From positions 64,001 to 128,000 of the forward strand of contig CAVWLW010000064.1 in assembly GCA_963755715.1 (NCBI GenBank): a stretch of DNA of 64,000 nt, read 5' to 3'. Each line of letters begins with the position of its first letter. Within the stretch, counting starts at the first letter, position 1. The position numbers and the translations under genes were made by a program. Positions 7,264 to 59,389 of the stretch are shown in pieces. Source of the stretch: an uncultured delta proteobacterium. GTDB taxonomy: Bacteria > Desulfobacterota > Binatia > UBA9968. Under the pieces are notes generated by a model. It saw only the letters and a program-made list of their open reading frames with translations, did no database searches and was not told the origin of the DNA.

Positions 7264-8262
7264 TTACGGCTTGTAGATGCGGCTGATAAAACCTTCTTTT
7301 TCCAGTTCCAAAACCAAGCTGTCGTCGACGATGTCGTCGACCTTCAACGTGCTGCCCGGTTTGCGCGCCACGGCCTCTTTTACCTGCGCGTCCATGCCGT
7401 CGCGATTGACCAACGGCACTTGCTCGAATAGCTTGCTGCTCGACTGGTAGGCGCTTTCCAAGTAGGCCTCGTTGTTCTGGCGCGAGTATTTCGCAAAAAT
7501 CTTCTTGCTCTCTTCCTTGTGGGTTTTGTAGAAGTGCGTCGCTTCGATCAGCGCCATCAGCAGCCGCTTCATCGCGTCGCGACTGCTTTTCAGATAACTC
7601 TTCGAAGTCGTCGGACAAACATAAGGGAACGGAAATCCTTTTGGAAAATCCGCGGTGCTGACCAAAACCCGGTGCGGCATTCCTTGCGCGAGGTGGATCG
7701 TGCCCGGCGGCGAAGGAAACGCCGCGATGCGCCCGGTGCGAAACGCCACCGCTCTTTCCGTCGAGCCGCCGACTTGAAGGATGGCCACGTCTTTATCCGG
7801 TTCGAGCTTCAGTTCCTTCAATAATACGCGCGCCGCCACATCCGAGGAACTGCCCACTCGGCTGATGCCGATGCTCTTGCCCTTGAGTTGCTGCGCCGAA
7901 CGGATCGACTCGTGCACGATCAGTTCGTAGGGCAGCGTGTTGATAAAACAGCCCACAACAACGACGTTGGCCCCGCCCACCGCCGCGTTGGCCGTCGCCC
8001 CGCCGGAAATATTTCCGACCGCGACGGAACCGGCCACCACCGCCGCAACAGTCGTCGTCGACGAAGGAATATAAATCAGCTCGACGTCGAGACCGTACTT
8101 TTTGTAAAGCTGCTTTTCCTTGGCGATATACCAATTGGCATTGGGTGAATCGACGGAGCTAAAAGCAATAGTTTGTTGTTGCGCATGCGCCGAGCGCGAA
8201 GAGAGAACCGCAATGAGGCAAGAGGAAAGGATCAATGCCCGTCGCCATGTGACACGAACCAT
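7264..8262 (-). CDS. ABC transporter substrate-binding protein, NMT1/THI5/SsuA-like
   Basis: Signal peptide AHA-Q; KKYGLDVEL, LKGKSIGISRVGSSSD and DDSLVLELEKEGF. Confidence 0.9.
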   Translation of the reverse strand: MVRVTWRRALILSSCLIAVLSSRSAHAQQQTIAFSSVDSPNANWYIAKEKQLYKKYGLDVELIYIPSSTTTVAAVVAGSVAVGNISGGATANAAVGGANVVVVGCFINTLPYELIVHESIRSAQQLKGKSIGISRVGSSSDVAARVLLKELKLEPDKDVAILQVGGSTERAVAFRTGRIAAFPSPPGTIHLAQGMPHRVLVSTADFPKGFPFPYVCPTTSKSYLKSSRDAMKRLLMALIEATHFYKTHKEESKKIFAKYSRQNNEAYLESAYQSSSKLFEQVPLVNRDGMDAQVKEAVARKPGSTLKVDDIVDDSLVLELEKEGFISRIYKP

Positions 8263-30427: not shown

Positions 30428-31639
30428 TTAGTTTATTTCCTTCGCGCGCACACCGGTGAACGAATCGATCTCGACCATCTCATGCGCCTGCTCGCGTCTC
30501 AGCGCACCCTTGGGAGCGCGCTTTTCCTGCACCGCTCGAATCGCATTGAGAATGATCCTGCGGATCAGAATCACGCCTTTATCCGATGTCCCAAGCTGCT
30601 CCTTGCGCCGATCGAGCAGCGGCTGCGTTGATTGGCAAGTGATATCTTCCGTGCGCACGTTGCCCCGAAAAGGAGAATACTTGCGCCGGTCGTAGGGTTT
30701 TTTTTCTGCCTTGGCTTCCACTTTGCGGCTCGGCGCCAATTTTTGAAAAAACTCCGGGTCGGAGCCGGTGTAATGGTTCACGGTAAAAAGCGTGAAACTA
30801 TGATCGTCGTTCGGCGTGACGAACATAAAATGCGCGTTGTGCGATCCTGCGCTCAGAGCCTCGCGCGGCTGGCTGAAGTGAGTGAACTCGGTATCGCCGA
30901 TTTGCAAGATGCTCGGCAACGCAAAGCTCTTTTCATCGACATACTCGGTATCCGCGCTCGGTCCCGGTTTGCGCGACACGACCTTCATGCCGTAGGCGGT
31001 CTCGATCGCGTCGAAATACGGAATGTCTTTGAAATTAAAAAACCAACTGCGCCATGTGCCGTCGTCGGGATCGGCTCGGTGGAGAATCGAAAAGTGCGCC
31101 GGGTCGGCGCCGTTCTCGATGAAATTGAACCAGTTGTAATCATAGACGCGCGTCGCTTCCAACGATCGTTGTCCGGCGCAATCCGCAAGCGCTGCGTACT
31201 TCGGCAGCGGTGGCGGATCGTCCGGGTTCGGTCCCAGGTAGGCGAACAGCAAGCCGCCCTGTTCCCGCACCGGATAAGATAAATGCTTTACCTTCTGGGC
31301 AAACTTGCTGCCCTGCGGTTCCGCCGGCATTTCTAGGCACTGACCGCGCACGTCGAACAGCCAACCATGATAAGGACAGCGAATGCCGCCGCATTCGATG
31401 TCACCATATTCTAACGACGCGCCGCGGTGCGGGCAGTGCGCGCCGATCAAGCCGATAATTCCTGTTTGATCGCGAAACAACACCAGATCTTCGCCCAGTA
31501 TTTTGATCGCCTTGGGGATGTCATGAAGATCGCGCACTGCGCTGACCACAATCCAATAGCGGCGAAACCATTCGCCCGCCGGCGTGCCTCGGCCGACGTG
31601 CGGAATATCGGCAACGGTGATCTTTTTCGATCGCTTCAT
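30428..31639 (-). CDS. Rieske non-heme iron oxygenase alpha subunit (paralog of 25749..26988)
   Basis: CPHR..CPYHGW; ENGADPAHFSILH; EDITCQ. Confidence 0.92.
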   Translation of the reverse strand: MKRSKKITVADIPHVGRGTPAGEWFRRYWIVVSAVRDLHDIPKAIKILGEDLVLFRDQTGIIGLIGAHCPHRGASLEYGDIECGGIRCPYHGWLFDVRGQCLEMPAEPQGSKFAQKVKHLSYPVREQGGLLFAYLGPNPDDPPPLPKYAALADCAGQRSLEATRVYDYNWFNFIENGADPAHFSILHRADPDDGTWRSWFFNFKDIPYFDAIETAYGMKVVSRKPGPSADTEYVDEKSFALPSILQIGDTEFTHFSQPREALSAGSHNAHFMFVTPNDDHSFTLFTVNHYTGSDPEFFQKLAPSRKVEAKAEKKPYDRRKYSPFRGNVRTEDITCQSTQPLLDRRKEQLGTSDKGVILIRRIILNAIRAVQEKRAPKGALRREQAHEMVEIDSFTGVRAKEIN

Positions 31640-31999: not shown

Positions 32000-33040
32000 T
32001 TATTTAAACTCCGGCATCACTTTCTCCGCGAAAAGACGAATATTTTTGAGCGCCAATTCCTGCGGCATGCCGCCGAAGTGAAAGGTGCCCGAGATAGTCG
32101 TTAGACCGGTCTCGTCGCGCCATTTGCGAATCGTATCGGCGACTCGCTTGGGATCTCCCGCCAGCACAAAGCCGTGCTCCAATTGAGTTCTGGCATCGCG
32201 TTGCGTCAGCAGCCCTTGCTCCTGGCGTTCGAGATCAGCCGCCTTGTGCACGTCGAAATAATTGATGAGATAGGGCTCCGCTTCGCGAATGGCGGCTTCT
32301 AAACTGTCCGCCACGTAAATATGAAACTTGCCGAGAATGTCGGTTTTGCCGCCGTTATGACCCGCCGCGGTCAAGGCGTTTCGGTAGCTCTTGATGAATC
32401 CGGGTAGTATTCCCGGTTCGCGATAGAGATAAGGCAGCGTCATCAGGTGAAAGCCGTGCTCGCCGGCCCAGCGAAAGCTATCTTCGCTGCGCGCGCATCC
32501 GACCCAAAAATTGGGATGCGGCCGCTGCACCGGTTTCGGAAACACCGGCACGTTTTGATAGTTGTAAAACTCGCCCTTAAAACTGACCGGCTTGTCCGAC
32601 CATGCTTGCAGCATCACTTCGACGCCTTCATACATGCGCTGGGTGGCTTCCTTTTGATCGACGCCGAACTTTTTGTACTCATGAGATTCGCTGCCTTTGC
32701 CCACGCCGAAATCCAACCGGCCGTTGGAAATGACGTCGACCATCGCATAGGACTCGGCCACCTCGATCGGGTTGTGCAGCGGCAAAACATTGATGGCAAC
32801 ACCCAGGCGAATCCGCTTCGTCGTGCGCGCGATGGCCGACATGAAAGTCGGCGGATGCGGCAGATCGCCGCCGTAGTGAGCGAAATGATGTTCGGTTACC
32901 CAGACGTGATCGTAGCCAAGCCGATCCATTTCTTCCATCTGACCGAACATCTTTTGATAGAATTCCGTAACCGACCCGTCCAAGTCGGCGACGTAGGTCG
33001 GCAGATAATGCGCGCCGAATTTCATGCTTTTGCTAGCCAT
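32000..33040 (-). CDS. Luciferase-like (LLM class) flavin-dependent oxidoreductase
   Basis: VWVTEHHF, TKRIRLG, VDVISNGRLDFGVGKG, PKPVQRPHP and FAEKVMP. Confidence 0.92.
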   Translation of the reverse strand: MASKSMKFGAHYLPTYVADLDGSVTEFYQKMFGQMEEMDRLGYDHVWVTEHHFAHYGGDLPHPPTFMSAIARTTKRIRLGVAINVLPLHNPIEVAESYAMVDVISNGRLDFGVGKGSESHEYKKFGVDQKEATQRMYEGVEVMLQAWSDKPVSFKGEFYNYQNVPVFPKPVQRPHPNFWVGCARSEDSFRWAGEHGFHLMTLPYLYREPGILPGFIKSYRNALTAAGHNGGKTDILGKFHIYVADSLEAAIREAEPYLINYFDVHKAADLERQEQGLLTQRDARTQLEHGFVLAGDPKRVADTIRKWRDETGLTTISGTFHFGGMPQELALKNIRLFAEKVMPEFK

Positions 33041-33073
33041 CAAGCTTCACAACCTCCAAATTTTATCCAACCA

Positions 33074-33307: not shown

Positions 33308-34648
33308 TTATCCGCCCATTGCCACCGGTGGCGAGAATACCGTCGGTCCTTTGACCTCGGACTCGAGGGCTTTGAGCGCGGTTTGAATGATTTCACGGCG
33401 CAGGCGCGCGTCAAGTTCTTTGGATAAATTCGGATCGCCGCACGGATGCGGAATGCTCACGCCTTTGACGATGCGGTTGGCGCGCACCTGCTGCGCCACG
33501 GGAAACATCGCGCTGATCAACGCTACCGGTAAACCCGCCTTTTCAAGTTCTTTGCTCATCACAGCGCCGCTGCGACTGCACGTCCCTCACGTGGCGACAA
33601 ACAGGACTCCTTCGACGTTGTCTTTTTTTAAGTCCGCGGCGATTTCCTGACCGATGCGGCGCATCACCGTCGGCGAACCTTGGTTTCCGGGAATAACGTA
33701 ATAAGCCGGATAAAGTTTTCCCGGACCGATCGCGCCCTCGGCTTCCAGCGCGCGCAGCGCGTCGAGCGGCACGCCGTAGTGGGGATTCTGATTCATGTAC
33801 GCCACGTTGTAGCCGCCGTGCACCGCTTCCCATTTTCCCGGCTCGAGCTCTTTGAGCTCGGCGATATTGTATTTGCGCCAGTAGGTATTGCGATAAGTTT
33901 TGAACTTATCCGGATTGCCCCACGGCACCACCCCGCTGGTTGTCACTACGGCGATGTTGCGATCTTTTACTTGATCGAGTGGCGGCGCCGGCGGCGCGTC
34001 GTCCCACACTTCCATCGGCAGCTCGCTCTCGAACGGCTGGTTATTTATTTTCTTGAGCAGCATTTCGACCGCGCGCGTGGCGCCGCGGCGGTCGGTTTTC
34101 TCAATCCGTCGAATGCCGCGCCCGATGTAACCTTCTTTGGCCGCGGAACCGATCTCTTCACCGCGCGCTAGCCGGATCGCAAGGCGCGCCAAGCGCGTCA
34201 GCGCGTCGTTCATCCCCGTCGTCGCTTCCGCCGTCGGCAGGCAATAAACCCGCGCATTGACAAATTCGCGATAAGTGCCGACGCCCGGGTTCTCCTCGTG
34301 CATTGCGGTTAAGCAGGGAATTTGCAGCGCGTTGGCTACCGCATTGCAAATCTCGACGCAGGACAATCCGTAGCGGCCGGAGTTGAACGCCGGTCCCGCC
34401 ACCAAAACGTTGGGCTCCGCCGCGCGCACGGCGTCGAGAATCGCTTTGAGCGCTTCTTCTTTGTGCTCATGAAAGTAGTTATCGCCGACATACACCGTGC
34501 AAGCGATCTTGCCCTCGTCGCCGAGCTTTGGCTCCAAGCCGCGCGCCGCGCCGGCGCTGCCTTCGATCACGCCCACGGGCAAGCCCGCTTTTTCCTCGCC
34601 GCCGAGGCCGGCAAAAAATTGATTGACGACGTGAACGATTTTAATCAT
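33308..34648 (-). CDS. grdB: Glycine/sarcosine/betaine reductase family selenoprotein B (Sec at codon 354)
   Basis: VHVVNQFFAGLGGEEKA, VGDNYF, AGPAFNSGRYG, VTTSGVVPWGNPD and HGGY; in-frame TGA 33587-33589 gives VAT-U-GTCSRSGA, continuing in frame into KELEKAGLP..IPHPCGDP. Confidence 0.93.
33559..33575 (-). promoter_or_regulatory. Putative bacterial SECIS stem-loop
   Basis: UCGCAGC-GGC-GCUGUGA hairpin with G in the loop, starting after an 11-nt spacer 3' of the UGA. Confidence 0.7.
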
Positions 34649-34676
34649 GGCAACCGTCTCCTTAATATCTAGAAGA

Positions 34677-34786
34677 GTTCAAAACGTTCAACCGTTTGGA
34701 GCGGACCGCATGGTTCGACGGGCTCACCACGAACGGCATATTTTTCCGCTCATCCTGAGACGGTCGAAGGATTGAACGACTGGAAC
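34677..34786. repeat. Nested palindromic repeat between grdE-like and grdB
   Basis: Outer GTTCAAAACGTTCAA/TTGAACGACTGGAAC; inner TTCGACGGGCTCACCACGAACGG/CCGCTCATCCTGAGACGGTCGAA. Confidence 0.65.
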
Positions 34787-34788
34787 AA

Positions 34789-36096
34789 TTAGTATTCCGC
34801 GCATCTAAATTCCCCTTGTCCCCAAATATCCGCCCCGCCCATCATGACATCACGCGCCTCCAATGACAAAGCGCCGCGTGCCGGCACCAGAGCCGCGCCG
34901 GGAAAAGGAAAAATTTTGATCTGTTCGTACGGACCGATGACTTTGTCCATTGCCGGCAGCTCGACGACTTTATCGAGGCTGCCCGTGCTCACTATCGCAT
35001 TCGCTTCGGCAATGTAAAACAGCACAGGACTGTCTTTGCCTTCCTTACCGCCATTCTCATAAGTGACCAAGGTGGTCTTAATGCCGTTTTGCTCACACGC
35101 GCGCACCGTGAGCATGACGTCGACGAAGGCGTTGCCGCCGCCGATCCAGGTCACCAGCGCGCCATCGGCGCCCATCGCTTTGGCCAGACGCGCGGCGTTC
35201 TGCGCGCCGACTTCTTTGCCGTGGCTGGTCTCAAAGCGAATGCGCTGCAAGACCACGCCGCCGAAGTTCAAGCTTTTGCCGTGCGCCGCGTACAACTCCA
35301 AAACCAAAGGATGGTTCTGCCAATCCCAGGTCGTCGGGTAATAGCCGCGCCCCGAGCGCGTCGTGTCCACCGTCACCGCGCCGTCAAAAAGCTCGTTGGG
35401 ATGAACAAACGTGGACATGGAATTACGCAACGAGAGCCCGTAATAACCCACGCCCGAATGCACGTGCTGCGGGTCGGTGATGCAGCCTTGCACCAGCATC
35501 ACATTCGGCAGCGCCGGATCTTTCTTGCTCAAATCATAAGTGGCGATCTCTACCGGCGAAAGTTCCGCCGTGACTTGGCCAAGCCGCTGGGCAACTTTAT
35601 ATTCGGCCGATTGAATTGCCCCGTGCGCATCCAACTCGCCCAAGCCCGGCGCGATCCTGAAGCTCAAAATCAGATGTCGGCACGAGCTAAACCGGGAAAT
35701 CTCCGCGCCCGGCCCGGACATATCGAGGATGGCGTTTCTTTGCACCGTCGTGCCGGCACGGATCGTGCCTTCGTACTCCGCCGCCGCGATGACGGTCATG
35801 CCGGACAGCCGATGAGTTCGGCCATCGCCGACGTTTTCGACGGCGCCTAAAACACCGGGGAAAACCTGGCCACTGCCCGCCACTTTAAAGCGCGGCTCGA
35901 CCATATCGCGTATGCCGGTGATGCGCGTCTTTTCGCCGGGCACAGCCACGGCCAGCGTTGCATCCGTGATCCGCGTATCTTCGAGGACGAGAGCGATCAG
36001 TTCGCCCTCGTCGACCTCGAGGATTTCGCTTTCGTATTTGAAACGACTCCCCAAGCGAATCTGCTTTACCGGAAATTCTGCGAGTTCGAGTTTCAA
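34789..36096 (-). CDS. Glycine/sarcosine/betaine reductase component B proprotein (GrdE/GrdI-like), lacks pyruvoyl Cys
   Basis: MKLEL, DMVEPRFKV, FPG, GDGRTH, DMSGPGA, PNELFDGA, NHP..ELY..HGK.LNF.GV, GGGN and LPAMDKVIG align with GrdE as recalled. Confidence 0.88.
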   Translation of the reverse strand: MKLELAEFPVKQIRLGSRFKYESEILEVDEGELIALVLEDTRITDATLAVAVPGEKTRITGIRDMVEPRFKVAGSGQVFPGVLGAVENVGDGRTHRLSGMTVIAAAEYEGTIRAGTTVQRNAILDMSGPGAEISRFSSCRHLILSFRIAPGLGELDAHGAIQSAEYKVAQRLGQVTAELSPVEIATYDLSKKDPALPNVMLVQGCITDPQHVHSGVGYYGLSLRNSMSTFVHPNELFDGAVTVDTTRSGRGYYPTTWDWQNHPLVLELYAAHGKSLNFGGVVLQRIRFETSHGKEVGAQNAARLAKAMGADGALVTWIGGGNAFVDVMLTVRACEQNGIKTTLVTYENGGKEGKDSPVLFYIAEANAIVSTGSLDKVVELPAMDKVIGPYEQIKIFPFPGAALVPARGALSLEARDVMMGGADIWGQGEFRCAEY

Positions 36097-36207
36097 CGTC
36101 TTCTCTTCAACGGTTTGAACGTTTGGAACGTTTAAATTCTTCTATGCCGCAAAACTACACCTATCCCGAAATATTCCAATCCCAGCGCTGTGATCGCATA
36201 AATTGGC

Positions 36208-37314
36208 TCACGGCGCCCCCATGATTTTGCGAAAGTCCTGAATATAGTTTTGCAGATTGGCGCCAAGCTTGGGACTCACGACGAAGTCCGGTTTGACTTG
36301 AAAATCTTTAAACTTGCTGCGCACACCTTTCATCGCGCTGCCTTTGCCCAAACTCGTTGCCAAAAAAGACTGCGCTTCATCGGAGAGAACCCATTCGACG
36401 AACAGCAGCGCAGCGTGCGGGTGAGGCGCGTTCTTCGCCAAAAACAGGCCCTCGGGTTTGACGATCGTCGGCGCAAGAACTTTAAATCCCAGGGGCGCCC
36501 CTTTTTCGCGAATCGCCGCCGAAGTCTCGCCGTTGATCGCGATGCCGACGGGATATTCGCCCGAAGTCACCACCTGTGTCGTCAAGGTGCCGCCGCGCCG
36601 ATAGCTCAAATCTTGCTTGGCTAACTTCGTCAAATAAGCGACTGCTTTTTCTCGCCCCCAGCTCTCTTCCATCGCTGCCAGAATATATCCCGCTTCCGGA
36701 TCGAAAAGCATTTTACCTTTCCATGCGGGGCTAAGCAGTTCGTCGTAGCTCTTCGGAGCCTGTTCCGCCTTGATGGAGTTGGTGTTGTAAATCAAGGCTG
36801 TGGTCAAATAGTACATGCTGTGCCAGTAGCCGTCGGGATCGTAGGTGCCGTCATAAAAACGCTTCGCGCCGGCGATCGGTTGCGGCTGCACGAGATTGGC
36901 GTTCAACAACTGATAGCCGTAACTCAGATCCACTTGAATCACGTCGGCCGCATGGCGCCCGGCCCGCGCTTCGGTCAACGTGCGGCTGAGAATGCCGTCG
37001 CGCGGCGAAAAATAATGCTGCAGTGCGATAGACCGGTAGCGCCCGTTAAAAACCCGCGCCAGCGGCAGAAACTCGTCGATCGGCAGCGTGCCGTAGTAGA
37101 CGAGCTCTCCTTCCGCCTGCGCGCCCTTGAGTAAATAACTGGTTCTTTCCTGCGGCTTGAGCGATCTTATCTTTACTGCAACTTCAGCGATCGTCGCCGC
37201 ATAGAGCGTAACCGTGGCATTCGCGCAGCTAATGAGGATCGCAAAAACCAAGCTGGCTTTAGCGACTGCGGCTTGATGGCGCCTTAGCCGATGAACTTTG
37301 CCGATGAGTTTCAT
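36208..37314 (-). CDS. ABC extracellular solute-binding protein (Fe3+/AfuA-like, cluster D)
   Basis: GAQAEGELVYY, EARAG, YNT, PKSYDELL.P.WKGK and APHPHAA.LF..W.LS. Confidence 0.85.
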   Translation of the reverse strand: MKLIGKVHRLRRHQAAVAKASLVFAILISCANATVTLYAATIAEVAVKIRSLKPQERTSYLLKGAQAEGELVYYGTLPIDEFLPLARVFNGRYRSIALQHYFSPRDGILSRTLTEARAGRHAADVIQVDLSYGYQLLNANLVQPQPIAGAKRFYDGTYDPDGYWHSMYYLTTALIYNTNSIKAEQAPKSYDELLSPAWKGKMLFDPEAGYILAAMEESWGREKAVAYLTKLAKQDLSYRRGGTLTTQVVTSGEYPVGIAINGETSAAIREKGAPLGFKVLAPTIVKPEGLFLAKNAPHPHAALLFVEWVLSDEAQSFLATSLGKGSAMKGVRSKFKDFQVKPDFVVSPKLGANLQNYIQDFRKIMGAP

Positions 37315-37613
37315 ATCAGTTTCGTTTAGCAAAACGTTGAAGCGATCGTCAATGACGATGATCGGTCATGAAAAATGTTCACGCAACCACCCGAGTCTGA
37401 TTCAGCTAGAGCACTCGATAACCCAAGCGGCGATCCACGATCGTAAATCGGCCAAATTTGTCTGGCGCTGTACGAGATCAGCATACGACATATTGCGTAT
37501 TCTTGGCTCATTGACACCGTCGTAGTTTTTTCTTATTGACATGGCTAGCCGGCATAATAAATTTTTCTTGTAGGGCTCGTTAAAATCGCTTTAAAGGGAG
37601 GAGGTGATACTAG

Positions 37614-38104: not shown

Positions 38105-39184
38105 TTAGCGCAACATCGGAAGAATTTCTTCGCCCCAGAGCTTGATCACTTCGGGAATATCAGGTCCCAGGGGAACGCCGAGAGTAATCTGCCTGAACCC
38201 ATCGCGCGCCGCCAGTGAAAAAAGCTCCGCGATTCGTTCCTTGCACTGGGCCGGCGTGCCGGCGATGATCAGACGATCCACCGCTTCGTCCGGCGTCAGC
38301 GACGCAGCGTAATCGACGCCGCGATTCTCGGCGTACGCCTTTCGCACCTCTTGAATCGCCTGGGGGTCAATGCCTTTCGTCTTGAGGACTTCATCCGGCC
38401 AGCCGGACACGATATGCGAAACGAATCTTTTCGCGTGTTGCCTGGCCGCCTGGCCGTCACGCGATACCGAGGCATTGAGCAGCATGACTTTGCGCAACGG
38501 CTCGGCCAGCGGCGATTGCGCTCGCGCCGTTTCAAGACGCGCCAGCGATGATTCCATGTCGGCGATACCGTAAAGCGTTTGCAGGATCACCCCGTCGAAG
38601 TGGCGCGCGATCAGATCGAGCACCGCGGGCTTGAGGAGACTCGGGCCGTAATAAAGGCGGATCGGCGCCTGAGTCTTGAAGCGGAGCGCATATTGCTCCG
38701 CGTTCATGTGAAAATAAGACGCGAGGACGGGAATCTCGCTGCTCTGGAGCGGCGCACCGGCGAACAACGTCCGTAATGCCGTGGCCAACTCCGCCATGAT
38801 CGTGAGCGGTTTTACCCGTTCCACTTGATGTGTGAGTATCGATCTCGATCCGGGTCCCAAGCCAAGGGAGATTTCCCGCCCGTCCATAAGTTCGGATATC
38901 GTCGCGAAGGCCATCGCCAAATCGACGGGGTTACGAAAATAAGGCACGGTTACGGCGGTGCCGAGCTTCACCGGCAATCGCGCGACAATCGCCGCGGAAC
39001 TCGCCAAGACGCTGCGATATTCCAGATTGTCGTTGGTCCAAACCTGGCTGAATCCGAATTGTCCCATCGTCCGCCAAGCCGTCTCGGCGAGCCCGATCAA
39101 CTCCGGCAGCGAGTAACGATTGAGCACGTGGAGCGGATAGTGAATGCCGATTTCGCCGGTAAATTTCTTTTCTTGTTTTGCCAT
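38105..39184 (-). CDS. LLM class oxidoreductase (Mer-like subgroup)
   Basis: VWTNDNL, LGTAVTVPYFRNP, ELMDGREISLGLGPG and AGTP. Confidence 0.85.
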   Translation of the reverse strand: MAKQEKKFTGEIGIHYPLHVLNRYSLPELIGLAETAWRTMGQFGFSQVWTNDNLEYRSVLASSAAIVARLPVKLGTAVTVPYFRNPVDLAMAFATISELMDGREISLGLGPGSRSILTHQVERVKPLTIMAELATALRTLFAGAPLQSSEIPVLASYFHMNAEQYALRFKTQAPIRLYYGPSLLKPAVLDLIARHFDGVILQTLYGIADMESSLARLETARAQSPLAEPLRKVMLLNASVSRDGQAARQHAKRFVSHIVSGWPDEVLKTKGIDPQAIQEVRKAYAENRGVDYAASLTPDEAVDRLIIAGTPAQCKERIAELFSLAARDGFRQITLGVPLGPDIPEVIKLWGEEILPMLR

Positions 39185-39265
39185 GGCGCTCTCCAACAAA
39201 CAGATTGATTCTACAGGGCGCGTTGGGGATTCATCACTTCGATATGTGACGCGAGCCGCGCAAGC

Positions 39266-40555
39266 CTATTTATGATTGCGCGACTCGGCGATCCAAATAA
39301 AGATCACGGATACGAACGTCAACGCTTGAGCGATCCAAAAAGCCTCATGATAACTACCAGTCCAGTCATGAATGACGCCGCCCAGCCAAGGACCGATGCC
39401 CGCCCCCGCGCCGATAAACAGCGAAATTGCGCCGATGATCGCGCCGAAAGATTTGCCGTGAAATAAATCGGCGGCGATGGTCGGGTACAGCGATTGGCGC
39501 GACGAGAAGCCAACCGCGATAAATGGCGGAAACGCGTAGAACAACCAGCTGCGGCTGACGTCTGTGATCATCATCAAGAGGAAAATGCCCGCCATCAACG
39601 ACGCTGAGCCGAGCAAATAGGACCATTGGCGGCCGATCCGATCGGCCAACAGCCCCATGAAAATCATTGCCGGCGCGGTAAAAAGCCCGATCAGTCCGAG
39701 CCCAAACGCCGCCAGTTCTTTTGAGAATCCCGCGTCGCTCACCGCGGCAACTTGATGAATCAGGACCATGTGCAGCGGAATCGCGCCGGCGAGCACGCCG
39801 ACGGCAAAAGCCCAAAAACGCCAGGTGCGCAGCGTCTCCCTCAAGCTCGGACCGCCGACGCCCGCAGCTTTCGCGTGGGCCGCGGCATCGCGAGTCGCCG
39901 GATCGCCAAAGTCGGGTTTGAGATTCATTTCGTCCGGCCTTTGGCGTTGAAAGAAATAGTTGAGCGGCGCGACCACCATCGCCAATATGCCGGCGAGAAT
40001 GAAAAACGCCGCGCGCCAGCCGTAGGCGGCGATCAACCACTGCGTCCACGGCACGACGAGAAGAATTCCCAAACCGATGCCGGACGCCGCCGTGCCGATC
40101 GCCATGCCGCGTTTACGGATGAACCAGTTGGATAAGAAAGTCGCTTGCGAGGTCATCGGCAGGGCCGCGAAGCCGACGCCCATGAAAACTCCCATGCCGA
40201 TATAAAACGCGACAACGGAGTGGGCAAAACCGCTGATCACGAAGCCGGTTGCCATGATCAGCGCGCCGCCCGGCAGCACGATGCGCGGACCGAGCCGGTC
40301 GAGTAGAATGCCGATCACCGGCGCCGACAGCGTCCACATGACGGATCCGAGCATGAGCGCGCCGGATGCCAGCCCACGGCTCCAGCGAAACTCTTCGATC
40401 ACCGCGACTAAAAATACCGCGAAGGCGTTGCGCGTGCCGAACGCCACCGCGACGGTCAAAAACGCGATGCCGATGACGACCCACGGATAGTAACGCTGCA
40501 GCGCTCGACTTGCGGCAATCTCAGTTTTCACAGCATACAAGGTGTTTTCCCTCAA
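39266..40555 (-). CDS. MFS transporter (OFA/MCT-like)
   Basis: 12 TM; GILLDRLGPR, WFIRKRGMAIG and GLLADRIGR. Confidence 0.9.
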   Translation of the reverse strand: MRENTLYAVKTEIAASRALQRYYPWVVIGIAFLTVAVAFGTRNAFAVFLVAVIEEFRWSRGLASGALMLGSVMWTLSAPVIGILLDRLGPRIVLPGGALIMATGFVISGFAHSVVAFYIGMGVFMGVGFAALPMTSQATFLSNWFIRKRGMAIGTAASGIGLGILLVVPWTQWLIAAYGWRAAFFILAGILAMVVAPLNYFFQRQRPDEMNLKPDFGDPATRDAAAHAKAAGVGGPSLRETLRTWRFWAFAVGVLAGAIPLHMVLIHQVAAVSDAGFSKELAAFGLGLIGLFTAPAMIFMGLLADRIGRQWSYLLGSASLMAGIFLLMMITDVSRSWLFYAFPPFIAVGFSSRQSLYPTIAADLFHGKSFGAIIGAISLFIGAGAGIGPWLGGVIHDWTGSYHEAFWIAQALTFVSVIFIWIAESRNHK

Positions 40556-40603
40556 ATGTCGTCAGACGAAATGCGAATGTGTCGGTCAGTCAATGAGTGA
40601 TTC

Positions 40604-41573
40604 TTACAGATAGCCCTTCTCTTCATAGTATTTCTTTGCCCCCGGATGCAGGGGAATGCCGAGCGGCGCGGCTTCCGTCCCCCGGCAAAGCTTTTTCATA
40701 TCGAGTGGACCCTCGTCATCGACGGGAATAACGCTCTGCCGCAAGTCGATCGCCTGGCAAATTGCGTAAGCGAGGTCGTTGCTGAGCCCGCGATGCGTGA
40801 TCAGCGGCCAGCCGCTGAAATCGATCGTGTTGACGTCCGCTTTGAGCTGTCGGAACTTTGCAGGTGGAATGACGGAGGCTTGATAACCGAGGGCCGACAA
40901 TTGTTTTACAATTTTAGGCTCGATCGGCAAGATTTCGAATCCATGGTCGAGCGCTTCGTCGAGCCAATTATGCAGTCCTTCGTCGAAGATCGCGTTGATC
41001 TTGCCCGTTTTTATCCCGTCCAACCGCTCCGGAGAGGTAGGCCTGGGAGTCTCCTGCACTCTCCCGCCCCAGCTCTTGATCTTGGCAAAGGACAGGCCGT
41101 AAAGCGCAAGAATCTCCGTCACGGTGTAGTAAGTCGTATTGTAAATACCGGAAGGACGGGTCGAAATTCTCAAGGGTATCTTGCGCTCGGCGATTTCGAA
41201 TAGAGATTTGAGCTTCAACTCTTTGGCGACCGCAAAAGCCATTTTGTCCCAGGATGGAAAGGAAGCCAGCGCCCGGAGAGGCAGCTTCTCCTTGTAAAAC
41301 CCTTTTCCCCGATAGGCCATGGTGACGATCGCGGATGGATTGATAAAGGCGACGTCGACCCGCCGTTTTCCGACTTCAATGGGGGCTTTCATGCCGCCCA
41401 TAAGATCGCCGTTGATGCCCATCGTCATTCCGGGAAACTGCTCTTCCCGCGAGCTGGGTTGTATGGAAATCGTTGCGACGTTGCCCATGTGCAGACATCC
41501 GTTGAGTATATAACTCCGCTGCGACCTCGAGCGCCATTTTCGTCCGCATCATCCGCGCATTCATTTTGGCCAT
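40604..41573 (-). CDS. TAXI-family TRAP solute-binding-fold protein without signal peptide (+1 frameshift near 41508)
   Basis: LRALA, PLITHRGLSNDLAYAI and IPLHPGAKKYYEEKG; N-terminus MAKMNARMMRTKMALEVAAEL. Confidence 0.8.
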
Positions 41574-41626
41574 GGAGATTTCCTTTTCTTACTGAGACTG
41601 GATCAGCATCGCTGGCAACGAATCCC

Positions 41627-42707
41627 TTATTGCACGATCGACGGCAATAAATCGCGCGCCAGAACCGTGATCGCTTCCTCATAGTCGGGGCCGAGCTTAG
41701 CCAAGCAAATTTGATCGAAGCCGTACTCTTGCGCGTAAGCGCACATTTCTTCGAGCGGTTTGACGCAGTCGCGCGGCGTGCCGGCAATGAAACCGATGTC
41801 GACCATCGCATCGGAGATCAGCGCCGAGACCTGCTCGATCGTGCCGCCCGCCTCGAAGGCCTGCTTAATTTGAATCACGGTCTCGCGCTCAACCCCTAAA
41901 GCCTGAAACTCTTCGTTCGAGAATCCCATCGCTTCGAGCACGACGAGCATATGGGCGATGTATCGCTTCGGAAAACTTCTCGCCTTTTGGTAATCGCTGG
42001 AGATCGAAATATTGATTTCGCAGACCTTTCGTAACTTCGTTTGGCGACCCGCATCTTTTCTTCCACGCTCGGTTTTTTCCAGCAGTCCGGCGAGCCTGCC
42101 GCTATGCACGAGCGGTTTGAAGAAGCCGCCGATCAGCACACCATCCATCACGCGGCCGGCGATCTCCATAATTCGCGGGCCGTTGCCGCCGCAATAAAAT
42201 AAAATCGGCGACTTCGGAGCAAAGCCCAATTGAATGCTGGAATTCGGGCGCAGGTTGAAGAACTCCGACAGCGACAGGATAGTCGCCGTATCTAACCGTA
42301 TCGCCGCGCAGAAGGCCCTTCATACATTCGACGGTCTCTTTCACCATGGCGATCGGTTTGACCATGTGGATTTGGTTGCCGGCTTGCGCGTAATCGCCGC
42401 GCGCGATACCCACGCTGATCTCACGACCGTCCATCAACTCCGACAGCGACGCGAAAGCATCGGCGGTATCCACTGGATTTCTGAAATACGGCACCAAAAT
42501 CGCAGTGCCGAGCTTGATCGGCACCTTCGACGCGATCGCGGTCAAAAGAACAAAAATATTTCTGTGGCCGAGATTGTCGTTGATCCAAAGCTGTGAAAAC
42601 TTATTGCGCTGAGCGTGCGCCGCGAGCTCGACCCATTGAGGTATGGAATAGTGCTTTGCGAGATGGGTCGTAAACTGTAAACCCACTTCACCCCGGTAAA
42701 CCGCCAT
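41627..42707 (-). CDS. LLM class oxidoreductase (Mer-like); +1 frameshift near 42275
   Basis: Paralog of 38105..39184 (WINDNL, LGTAILVPYFRNP, ELMDGREISVG); second half in ORF 41627..42229. Confidence 0.85.
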
Positions 42708-42807
42708 GCAAGCCTCCGTTTCTCTTATTCAACAGCGAAGGTCGGTGAAGGAACTAAATCTCGTGCCATGCGACCTAGATTAAATGCTCATCGAGCAGAG
42801 ATAGCGC

Positions 42808-43569
42808 TTACGCGCCGACGACGGCGCCGATCTTCTTTAGTTTCAACCTCAGCTCGTAGCGAAACAGGTCGCTTCGGTAGAAGCCCGCGGTCCGCATGAT
42901 CAGGCGTTTTTTGTAGAAATGGTCCCGCTCGACGTAGAGAACGGGAGATCCCTGCGGAATATCGAGATGTGAGGAGACCTCGTCGTCCGACAGCTTTGCT
43001 TCCACGATGTGCTTCACGTCACTGATCTTGATGCGCAAGGAGCTTTCAATAACGGTGGACAGCGGTATGGTTTTCATGCCCTTGATCCGCACTTGAGCGG
43101 CAATTCGTGAAGGCAGGTAGGAAATGACATAGGCAAGCGGCCGGCGGTGCGCCAACCGGATGCGTTCGATTTTCCTGACTCTCTCGCTTACTGCCAAGCC
43201 GAAGTCGCGGCGGAGCTCGAGCGACGGCTCAATGTCTTCCAAGTTAAGCACCTTGAAGCTTGTGCCTTCCGCATCAACCGGCGCCAGATCTTCGGTTTCA
43301 ACCTCGAGCTGAACCGATTTTTTGAGCGGCCCCTTCCAACTGACGAAGGTTCCTTTGCGCCACTCGCGCGTCAACAATTTTTCCTGACATAGCTGCGCCA
43401 GTGCTTGGCGAACGGTGATGACGCTCACGCCAAGCTGACGGGCCAGCTCGATCTCTCCGGGAAGACGATGGCCGTAACCCCACGTTCCGGACAGGATGTC
43501 GTCGCGGATGCGCATCATCACTTTGAAATACAAAGGCACCGGGGAGGCGGTTCGTTTGGCTAGGCGCAT
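42808..43569 (-). CDS. GntR/HutC family transcriptional regulator with UTRA domain
   Basis: PLYF, RLPGEIELARQLGVSVITVRQAL, KGTFV; C-terminal UTRA (GSPVLYVER, YRSDLFRY). Confidence 0.92.
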   Translation of the reverse strand: MRLAKRTASPVPLYFKVMMRIRDDILSGTWGYGHRLPGEIELARQLGVSVITVRQALAQLCQEKLLTREWRKGTFVSWKGPLKKSVQLEVETEDLAPVDAEGTSFKVLNLEDIEPSLELRRDFGLAVSERVRKIERIRLAHRRPLAYVISYLPSRIAAQVRIKGMKTIPLSTVIESSLRIKISDVKHIVEAKLSDDEVSSHLDIPQGSPVLYVERDHFYKKRLIMRTAGFYRSDLFRYELRLKLKKIGAVVGA

Positions 43570-43707
43570 ATTGACTACGTTTATGTTTAGGAGTAGATCA
43601 ACCTCGATAGAATTACAAGCCTTCGCCGACGCCGCTCGATCCACCCAGTGCGATAGAGATCAGCGAAGACTCGGTAGCAATTTCACAAAACGAGCATCGG
43701 AGGTCCC

Positions 43708-57956: not shown

Positions 57957-59389
57957 CTATCTACCGGCGATTTTTTGTTCGAGAAATTCGCGCCAATCGC
58001 CGGCGACTTTCTCTTTCAGCGTGCGGCTGGCGCCGCTGACCTTGGGAAACTTTTCTTGCCACTCGTAGGGCCGGGTGGCGTCGATTATCGCGCGCGAGCT
58101 GTGGCCGACCCGATCGCGCGCGATGCGCGGGTCGAGCGGGCCGCTCCACGCGCGGCGCAGGATCTCGATCGACTCGGCCGGATCGGAACGGCTGCTGAGC
58201 GCCCACAAAAATTCTTCGGAATTGGTGATGTCGACGTCGTCGTCGACTACGACCACGTAGCGGCCCAGATACGCCCCCGAGCGGCACTGGCTCGCAATCA
58301 TGCCCGCCTGGCGCGCATGACCGGGGTAGCGCTGCTTGATCGAAACAACGGTTAGAAATCTGCCGCCGGCCGGATGGCACCACACGCCTTTGACATCGGG
58401 CACACCGGCTTCGTCCATCGCGTTCCAGATCAACGACGAGCGCATGAGCGAGAAATGCACATTGTCGCCGCTCGATGGTTTCAATAACGGGAAGCCGCAG
58501 AGAATCGGATCGTTGCGATAGTAAATCGCTTTGATTTGGATCACCGGCACGGCCGGCTGATTGCTCGCGTAGTAACCCGTCCATTCACCGAAAGGCCCTT
58601 CGGGCATAACGTCTTCGACCCCGACTTCGCCTTCGATGGCGATCTCGGCATCGGCGGGAATCGGCAAGCCCGTGAGCGGCCCGTGAATAACTTGTAGCGG
58701 CTTACCGAGAATGCCGCCGGCGTAATCATACTCGTTGACCCGGTTGGGCACGTCGGTCGATGCCACGACGAAATTGATCGGATGGTGGCCGAATGAAACT
58801 GCGACGGGAAATGGTTTTCCCTGCGCGTGATATTTGTCCTTGTGCACGCGGCCATGCTTGCCTGGCGACATGTGCAGCGCCAGACGATCCGGGCCATGCA
58901 CCATAATTCGGTAAGTGCCGACGTTCACCCAATCTTCTTCCGGGTCGCGCGTGATACCAGATCGTCGGTGCCGATGTAGCGCCCGCCGTCGAGCTCGTGC
59001 CAGCGCGGCACGGGAAACTGGAGCACGTCGATGTCTTTGCCCTGCTTGACGTTTTCGAAGAGCGGTCCGGTTCGAACCGTTTCAGCGCGAATCGGTGTAA
59101 TTTTCTTCACCTGCTCGCGCCAAGCCTGGACAAAATCCATATCGCTCAGACCCGCTTTCATGCCGAGCGTCAACGCCAAACGTCCGACTGAAGAAACCAA
59201 ATTCGCCGCGACCCGATAGCCTTGGGGATAATCTTTGATGCGATCGAAAACGATCGCCGGTCGCGTCCTCGAGCGCTCGTTGATGATTTCCGTAAGCGTC
59301 GACAGCTCGAGATCCCAGTGAGCGTTTTCAACGGTCATCAACTGGCCGAGTTTATCAACGTCGCTAAGCCAAGTGCGTAGGTCTGGCAT
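57957..59389 (-). CDS. UbiD family decarboxylase (-1 frameshift near 58955), paralog of 22247..23674
   Basis: DLRTWL, DGGRYIGT, NVGTYR, EGPFGEWTGYY, QRYPGHARQAG and WSGPLDP. Confidence 0.88.

Follow-up and report, generated by a model that had tools for sequence, protein, structure and literature searches.

In textbooks, selenoenzymes of the GrdB type mark anaerobic Stickland fermentation. Here we describe a GrdB-like gene and its GrdE-like partner in a 64-kb stretch of DNA (the window) from the genome of an uncultured soil bacterium of the Binatia type. The locus is predicted to encode a two-subunit enzyme of the "protein B" type, as in the glycine, sarcosine and betaine reductases, and the enzyme pair probably cleaves a small acid.

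Several substrate-specific protein B complexes feed one A/C system, as described in the relevant part of PMC10838667. In C. difficile, the pyruvoyl group of GrdE and PrdA derives from Cys, for which the part of PMC9908766 dealing with these subunits gives mass spectrometry data. GrdI of betaine reductase and FarE of fluoroacetate reductase are described in PMC10838667 as unprocessed subunits rather than proproteins, with substrates that have good leaving groups. By these precedents, as PMC10838667 presents them, an E subunit without the cysteine is not new in itself.

In the window, the genes for a solute-binding protein (SBP), the GrdE-like subunit and the GrdB-like subunit form a head-to-tail series on the minus strand. 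Their features, with those of the selenocysteine (Sec) codon, the Sec insertion sequence (SECIS) and the nearest downstream gene, are as follows.

33308..34648, minus strand: GrdB-like selenoprotein gene, 446 aa, Sec354, motif T-U-G-T-C-S-R-S-G, with Pfam and NCBIfam matches and a clade of its own
33587..33589, minus strand: in-frame UGA, selenocysteine codon 354; TGA kept in 47/47 homologous matches, sel genes in the genome
33559..33575, minus strand: SECIS hairpin, 7-bp stem UCGCAGC/GCUGUGA with a GGN loop, 11 nt 3' of the UGA
34789..36096, minus strand: GrdE-like subunit gene, 435 aa, TTG start; orthologues begin MKLE
35359..35361, minus strand: Thr246 codon of the GrdE-like gene, aligning with the self-cleaving Cys of canonical GrdE
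36208..37314, minus strand: solute-binding protein gene (SBP_bac_8/6/1 type) with a signal-peptide-like N-terminus
32000..33043, minus strand: luciferase-like (FMN/F420) oxidoreductase gene (LLM), a recurrent downstream neighbor in orthologous loci

The likely start of the SBP gene is the ATG at 37314, and its longest open reading frame (ORF) begins at the TTG at 37332. The grdE-like gene lies directly upstream of the grdB-like gene with a gap of 140 bp; the latter has an ATG start and an AAGGAG ribosome-binding site 8 nt upstream. The pair resembles protein B of glycine reductase (GrdB and the GrdE proprotein) in its two families, the E-then-B order, the position of Sec and a SECIS directly after the UGA. 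However, glycine reductase has U-G-T-C-T-R-C and DGAIASGN-C where the window proteins have U-G-T-C-S-R-S and Thr246, and the window locus has no adjacent grdA, grdC, grdD or trx gene.

The in-frame UGA of the grdB-like gene

Under genetic code table 11, the grdB-like gene is split into two minus-strand ORFs, 33587-34648 (353 aa) and 33308-33562 (84 aa). Translating the TGA at 33589-33587 as Sec yields a single 446-aa frame, which runs FVAT-U-G-T-C-SRSG across the codon and holds the U-x-x-C motif of the GrdB-like protein as U354-G-T-C357. The protein matched the Pfam GRDB family (PF07355) at 385 bits (cut-off, 22), which places it in the superfamily, and the selenoprotein B subfamily model TIGR01918 at 446 bits over residues 3-438 (cut-off, 65.45).

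We compared the gene with 74 related loci taken from species-representative genomes. Codon 354 was TGA, and the frame continued, in all 47 of the 47 tblastn matches that covered it. The motif T-U-G-T-C-S/T-R-S-G was preserved down to 58% identity. The frame 3' of the UGA stayed open for 92 conserved codons, and the peptide encoded there was 58-97% identical in all 47 matches. Synonymous sites were then analyzed in 38 full-length genes, which had been chosen because they carry the protein motif and have a plausible start. The mean synonymous entropy over the whole gene was 1.23 bits per degenerate codon, and the lowest-entropy 7-codon windows of the whole gene began at codons 357-359. At codons 358, 359, 360, 362 and 363 a single codon was used in 35-38 of the 38 genes, and the codon for Gly361, in the hairpin loop, varied. 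The SECIS stem was invariant in 42 distinct sequences, with a variable third loop base. Since an invariant stem leaves no covariation, it is the suppressed synonymous variation that supports the SECIS.

The genome (G000 below), an assembly of 76 contigs that totals 7.4 Mb and is 93.6% complete, has the Sec-decoding trait, with tRNA-Sec on contig C69 and with selA (617 bits), selB (416 bits) and selD. The selD match at G000:C3:71086-72013 contains an in-frame TGA, SelD itself being a selenoprotein; it consists of two overlapping pieces and may reflect a frameshift or merely a split alignment.

If the UGA were a true stop, the product would be a 353-aa truncated GrdB or the gene would be decaying. 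Standard gene callers do truncate the gene at the UGA, and most database representatives of about 350 aa end at this position. The open frame of 92 codons, the identity of the downstream peptide in all 47 matches, the synonymous-site constraint on the SECIS, and the presence in the genome of a complete set of sel genes and of further selenoproteins make this explanation hardly credible. The preliminary description of this DNA had read the split gene through the UGA to a U-x-x-C site with a SECIS-like hairpin, and that reading stands: the homologous loci read through the codon, and the sel machinery is in the genome. By its sequence, the grdB-like gene is predicted to encode a genuine Sec enzyme; its SECIS looks functional, and the host has the sel machinery. 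Truncation at the Sec codon by gene callers leaves the family under-annotated. In four database representatives (P0151, P0173, P0210 and P0217; 774-798 aa), the GrdB part is in the C-terminal half and the sequence stops at the Sec position, which suggests natural fusions of GrdE and GrdB.

The GrdE-like subunit and the place of the pair in the family

The GrdE-like protein matched the Gly_reductase family (PF09338) at 318.6 bits (cut-off, 22.2) over positions 2-408 of 426, and is thus a member of that family. Its residues 238-251 read DGAVTVDTTRSGRG. We aligned the protein with GrdE from two Bacillota loci of the canonical type (L113 and L114), whose neighboring GrdB proteins score 688 (L113) and 666 bits (L114) on TIGR01917, above its cut-off, and read U-G-T-C-T-R-C. 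In this alignment Thr246 stands in the column of the self-cleaving Cys of canonical DGAIASGN-C-VSAC. The same column was then read in 81 Binatia-type GrdE-like genes (74 from loci L039-L110, 5 from the window's own genome and 2 from relatives G021 and G025). It held Thr in 67, Leu in 6, His in 3, Tyr in 2, Arg in 2 and Asn in 1; Cys at the pyruvoyl site was found in 0/81 of these genes versus 2/2 of the Bacillota controls. The lack of the pyruvoyl-forming Cys, pointed out in the preliminary description for the window protein, is thus a trait of all 81 genes. The GrdE-like partner is predicted to be unable to make a Cys-derived pyruvoyl group. More than 120 GrdE homologues were found at 79-98% identity; the named ones are metagenome-assembled genomes (MAGs) of Candidatus Binatia, and two are labeled Verrucomicrobiae and Chloroflexota.

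Ser gives pyruvoyl groups in other enzymes, and Thr holds the column in 67 of the 81 genes. GrdE could accordingly self-cleave before Thr246 by an N-to-O acyl shift and elimination, much as Cys yields the pyruvoyl group in GrdE and PrdA (as reported for those subunits in PMC9908766), to give a 2-oxobutyryl group; glycine, sarcosine or another primary or secondary amine would then be reduced through a Schiff base in the classical manner. We regard this as very doubtful, because Leu stands at the column in six orthologous loci of a sister family (L092, L094, L095, L096, L098 and L106) where the GrdB motif is still U-G-T-C, and because the column is His, Tyr, Asn or Arg in further paralogues. No Thr-derived keto cofactor is known to us in the GrdE family, and the literature consulted mentions none.

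The pair fell below every NCBIfam equivalog cut-off. For the GrdB model TIGR01917 the score was 411.8 bits versus 602.2, which does not qualify the protein as a glycine reductase subunit; it was 437.9 versus 800 for GrdF (NF040794) and 79.1 versus 300 for PrdB (TIGR04483). The GrdE-like protein scored 240.8 bits on GrdG (NF040793) versus 780, and the scores for FarE (NF053623) and PrdA (TIGR04480) were 109.9 versus 675 and 19.3 versus 700.

A tree of 101 N-terminal GrdB parts (350 columns) was built by a quick maximum-likelihood search in IQ-TREE under LG+G4, with the Shimodaira-Hasegawa-like approximate likelihood ratio test (SH-aLRT) as the only support measure. It covered 76 cluster representatives along with 6 Bacillota proteins, 4 paralogues from the window's own genome and 15 proteins from related loci, mostly labeled Binatia or Deltaproteobacteria. 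Among the 76 NCBIfam-scored representatives, P0198 alone looks GrdH-like and none looks GrdF- or FarB-like, so the tree has no GrdF, FarB or PrdB reference. The window GrdB fell in a 15-row clade of related MAGs (SH-aLRT 99), whose sisters are two unnamed representatives (17 rows, 99). Canonical GrdB and P0198 fell together in a separate 8-row group (support 87). The own-genome paralogues on contigs C57, C56 and C25 were placed in other clades. The pair, as far as tree and profiles go, is a separate branch of the family, as proposed in the preliminary description, and its own 15-row clade together with the missed equivalog cut-offs argues for a distinct specificity.

Betaine reductase (GrdH and GrdI) of Stickland fermenters of the Peptoclostridium (Eubacterium) acidaminophilum type is alike in having a Sec-containing GrdB-family subunit and an E subunit that lacks the self-cleaving Cys; Schiff-base activation is presumably not used, and hand-over to a shared GrdA is expected. 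A plain GrdH/GrdI orthologue would convert glycine betaine to trimethylamine and an acetyl unit. The E subunit would then be unprocessed, as PMC10838667 describes for GrdI, and a Rieske oxygenase gene does lie nearby. However, the window protein scored 404.3 bits on the GrdH model (NF040795) versus 775, a comparison that concerns the B subunit because the library gave no GrdI hit; P0198, though truncated, reaches 579 bits on only 346 model positions and lies in a different clade. The window pair also differs from betaine reductase in its oxygen-respiring host, in a lineage without grdD, and in an exported SBP of another type. In a PDB sequence search this SBP gave 26 matches, all weak (E 1e-11 and weaker), to binders of the pyridoxal-phosphate, Fe(III) and polyamine types, none of which is named a betaine binder. 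Such weak structural matches allow no ligand to be inferred. Orthology to GrdH/GrdI is in our view highly improbable.

The fluoroacetate reductase FarB/FarE of Cloacibacillus porcorum, as described in the part of PMC10838667 devoted to it, is also a pair related to GrdB and GrdE, and its substrate brings its own leaving group. Its E subunit is no proprotein, and its genes lie apart from grdA and grdC, which they are proposed to feed (PMC10838667). FarB is described in that account as having no CxxC residues, whereas the window GrdB keeps U-x-x-C. The window locus also has no antiporter or radical-SAM gene, and its FarE score is far from the cut-off given above.

Partner genes and the proposed hand-over

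None of the 61 window ORFs of at least 90 aa matched the GrdA, GrdC/D or PrdC families, shorter ORFs not being scanned. This agrees with the preliminary description. Its term "stand-alone" does not hold for the genome, however. A single GrdA (180.8 bits, one TGA, motif C-F-V-U) is encoded on C69, with GrdC beside it (507 bits; cut-off, 450), and trxB on C27 matched TIGR01292 at 416 bits, which identifies a thioredoxin reductase. There are also three further intact grdE/grdB-like Sec pairs (on C57, C56 and C25), an orphan grdE on C63 and a broken pair on C14. The sole GrdC, at G000:C69:65710-67096, has its last ~33 residues in another frame (profile positions 444-477 on 65710-65811), which is a frameshift or an assembly error near its 3' end. 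The broken pair (L021; G000:C14:73320-76062) has its GrdB in two frames and its GrdE in four pieces and is probably a decaying paralogue, with an SBP_bac_8 gene just downstream. A weak GRDB-domain match (22 bits) at G000:C26:98992-99363 (L008) reads F-P-F-U-P-A-C-H across an in-frame TGA and may be a further PrdB- or UGSC-like selenoprotein.

None of the own-genome GrdE paralogues has the pyruvoyl-forming Cys. Among the GrdB paralogues only the window protein keeps U-x-x-C, those on C57 and C56 reading UGTSTRSG and that on C25 UGTGTRSG. In two relatives, G021 (L137) and G025 (L138), grdC, grdA, grdE-like and grdB-like genes of the C56/C57 type form one operon, with a divergent gene for a 499-aa DUF255/thioredoxin-domain protein and a radical-SAM DUF3641 gene 1-2 kb beyond grdB. 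Unlike this paralogue type, which is about 41% identical to the window GrdB, the window's clade is unlinked to grdC and grdA, keeps U-x-x-C and travels with an SBP. The DUF255 gene of this operon type also adjoins the own C56 pair.

We next surveyed 31 genomes, namely G000 and 30 relatives of the same order, including the unpublished G007. GrdA with a TGA was found in 26 of them, and GrdC in the same 26, always adjacent to grdA and in 24 of them above the cut-off. GrdB-like genes were found in 27 of the 31 (1 to 7 per genome), nearly all matches containing the TGA and the few without it being fragments; the orthologue of the window's clade (56-88% identity) was in 21. GrdA/GrdC and GrdB-like genes occurred together in 24 genomes, and 2 genomes had neither. 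GrdA/GrdC was detected with no GrdB-like gene in G012 (60% complete) and G029 (81%). This is a lineage-wide variant of a known enzyme system, in an oxygen-respiring soil order with 1 to 7 Sec-GrdB-like genes per genome. GrdD was found above the cut-off in 0/31 genomes, the best score being 28.8 bits versus 350, while in the two Bacillota control genomes the same search detected GrdD next to canonical grdB, at 558-562 bits. Protein C, which consists of GrdC and GrdD, is thus represented by GrdC without GrdD, and no complete canonical grd operon was found elsewhere.

We favor, by a modest lean, the reading that the pair is a substrate-specific, pyruvoyl-independent protein B for an X-CH2-COO- compound, which feeds the unlinked GrdA and GrdC. 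The preliminary description had likewise proposed a pyruvoyl-independent Sec enzyme of a new branch, a proposal borne out by the Sec evidence, the Cys-less GrdE and the separate clade; the candidate substrates that it put forward were betaines, sulfonium compounds and N-carboxymethyl compounds. The exported SBP encoded upstream would capture the substrate for uptake. The cytoplasmic GrdE-like subunit would bind it, its leaving group being one that needs no Schiff-base activation; a quaternary ammonium, sulfonium, halide or aryloxide/alkoxide group is a candidate. Sec354 would then attack the alpha-carbon and become Se-carboxymethylated, and the carboxymethyl group would pass to the Sec of the unlinked GrdA. 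The Cys of GrdA would resolve the selenoether, GrdC would take the two-carbon unit as an acyl-thioester, and thioredoxin and TrxB would re-reduce GrdA. Without GrdD, the candidate fates of the acetyl unit are acetate, acetyl-CoA and acetyl phosphate. We infer these steps from established Grd chemistry and the GrdI and FarE precedents. Hand-over to GrdA and GrdC is favored because the two gene sets co-occur in 24 of the 31 genomes and share an operon in G021 and G025.

Several observations weigh against this reading. With GrdD missing, the canonical last step cannot run as described. The grdA and grdC genes lie on another contig than the window pair, and no orthologous locus of the window's clade carries them. 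GrdB-like genes occur with no detected GrdA/GrdC in G003 (65% complete), G011 (93%) and G028 (95%), and G011 and G028 include the orthologue of the window's clade. Retention of U-x-x-C by the window's clade alone among the own paralogues, together with an invariant Cys403, would permit a cycle independent of GrdA. Self-processing at Thr246 could occur in principle. A PDB sequence search with GrdB and GrdE matched no solved structure. Finally, the family is regarded as anaerobic, whereas the host here respires oxygen; the relevant part of a preprint (Haft 2022, 10.1101/2022.07.06.499078) says that GrdB functions only in anaerobic environments.

The chief alternative is a self-contained cycle in the style of PrdB, in which Cys357 or Cys403 of the same GrdB would resolve the Sec354 selenoether with no need for GrdA or GrdC, the reduced acid would be released directly, and the Se-S bond would be re-reduced by thioredoxin or another reductant. 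D-proline reductase (PrdA/PrdB) offers a likeness here, in that Sec and Cys in one subunit could run the cycle without GrdA/GrdC; the window pair lies far below the PrdB and PrdA cut-offs, and there is no prdC in the window. Cys357 and Cys403 (in HPCGDP) are invariant in 22/22 members of the clade, and canonical GrdB has H-P-L-G-D-P at the latter site. Cys403, whose codon is at window positions 33440-33442, may take the place of the second Cys of UxxCxxC, which is absent here. The unlinked loci of the clade and the genomes G011 and G028 also fit such a cycle. On the other hand, canonical GrdB has UxxC yet uses GrdA, as stated in the part of PMC13188914 on that protein, and G011 and G028 also have Cys-free paralogues that would need GrdA, which makes assembly gaps the simpler explanation. 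With the co-occurrence in 24 of 31 genomes, we consider the self-contained cycle unlikely.

The orthologous set comprised 32 loci with GrdE at least 68% identical (L039-L067, L081, L099 and L103). An SBP gene stands directly upstream of grdE in 28 of these, two contigs begin inside grdE, and L041 and L067 have no upstream SBP. In the window, too, the SBP gene was found upstream on the same strand at 36208-37314, as first described. GrdB follows GrdE in 20 of the 32 loci and five contigs end too soon; it was not found downstream in the other seven despite at least 1.5 kb of downstream DNA, and L055 has an NMT1-type SBP gene in its place. In six of these seven, the same MAG has its sole GrdB of the clade (63-69% identity) elsewhere, beside other GrdE paralogues. 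An extra GrdE (54-61% identity) lies upstream of the SBP in eight loci, four of which have a further one directly after GrdB. A match to the luciferase-like oxidoreductase (55-88% identity) lies downstream in 11 of the 32. SBP_bac_8-type genes also adjoin the C25 and C14 paralogue pairs and lie a few kb from the C57 pair. By these counts the SBP-GrdE pair is the most stable unit. The conserved unit is an exported SBP with GrdE (and GrdB and LLM), some relatives having several GrdE genes per GrdB, and GrdE looks like the variable, specificity-bearing subunit.

A wider reading is that Binatia rebuilt the Grd family into a modular toolkit for reductive C-X cleavage, in which interchangeable modules of Cys-less GrdE and SBP share one Sec-GrdB, the pathway ends in GrdA and GrdC without GrdD, and the substrates are not amino acids. 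It would explain the GrdE'-SBP-GrdE-GrdB-GrdE'' clusters and the six MAGs with SBP-GrdE apart from the sole GrdB of the clade. The pathway would possibly end in acetyl-CoA or acetate instead of acetyl phosphate, and the chemistry would parallel that of the glutathione-dependent beta-etherases. We hold this reading to be distinctly unlikely, and with it, as a part of the same claim, its proposed substrates: carboxymethyl ethers, thioethers and onium compounds of soil organic matter, such as lignin- or herbicide-derived aryloxyacetates and betaines.

Host, habitat and neighboring genes

The host looks aerobic, as the preliminary description had it. The genome has three heme-copper oxidase loci, and the window is rich in oxygen-dependent catabolic genes (Rieske oxygenases, LigB and LLMs); it also has UbiD decarboxylase genes. 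Near-identical DNA (0.64-0.76 of the sampled words) was found in 14 soil or rhizosphere runs, of which the best holder may be the source sample. Contigs of 84-382 nt from RNA libraries (four runs from three studies) matched parts of grdB, grdE and the SBP gene at 90-99% identity. DNA may be present in such libraries, the contigs show neither strand nor level, and the uncovered parts are uninformative; they give a faint hint of expression in soil.

Our literature search found no paper linking Binatia or Binatota to glycine reductase, Grd genes or selenocysteine. The main text of the Binatota genome paper PMC8262859 does not contain "glycine", "selen" or "betaine", and GrdA and GrdB are entered as undetected in the Olavius symbiont paper PMC1976440. 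Activity of these enzymes would mean that soil contains uncharacterized substrates whose C-N, C-S or C-O bonds are cleaved reductively, that the Grd pathway has a variant end, and that selenium has a role in aerobic soil heterotrophs.

Upstream of the SBP gene lies a looser neighborhood of five further genes, at 38105..43644 on the minus strand.

38105-39199, minus strand: mer-like LLM
39266-40555, minus strand: monocarboxylate-type MFS transporter
40604-41488, minus strand: TAXI SBP
42102-42707, minus strand: truncated LLM
42808-43644, minus strand: GntR/UTRA regulator

The ORF at 42102-42707 (201 aa) spans just the first half of the luciferase-like family profile and is probably a truncated gene. 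Parts of this neighborhood recur in orthologous loci: GntR and MFS genes lie directly upstream of SBP-GrdE-GrdB in L048, and TAXI, MFS and LLM genes lie upstream in L060 and L065. NCBIfam classification of the downstream LLM gene gave the MupA/Atu3671 family as the best match, at 151 bits versus a cut-off of 244, and yielded no substrate clue.

In the sister-family loci L092, L095, L098 and L106, the GrdB-GrdE pair of the clade lies beside one or two Rieske oxygenase genes, which share 31-34% identity with the LigXa-like Rieske gene at window positions 30428-31639. Between positions 7264 and 56570 the window holds nine NMT1-family and one TctC-type solute-binding genes, which have no transporter partners. 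Around these binding-protein genes are LigB, the LigXa-like Rieske gene, an RraA-like aldolase, FAA hydrolase, amidohydrolase_2 and four UbiD loci. The UbiD-family gene at 57957-59389 is broken up into a pair of ORFs that overlap: 58925-59389 encodes UbiD_N and the start of the core, and 57957-58928 the remainder.

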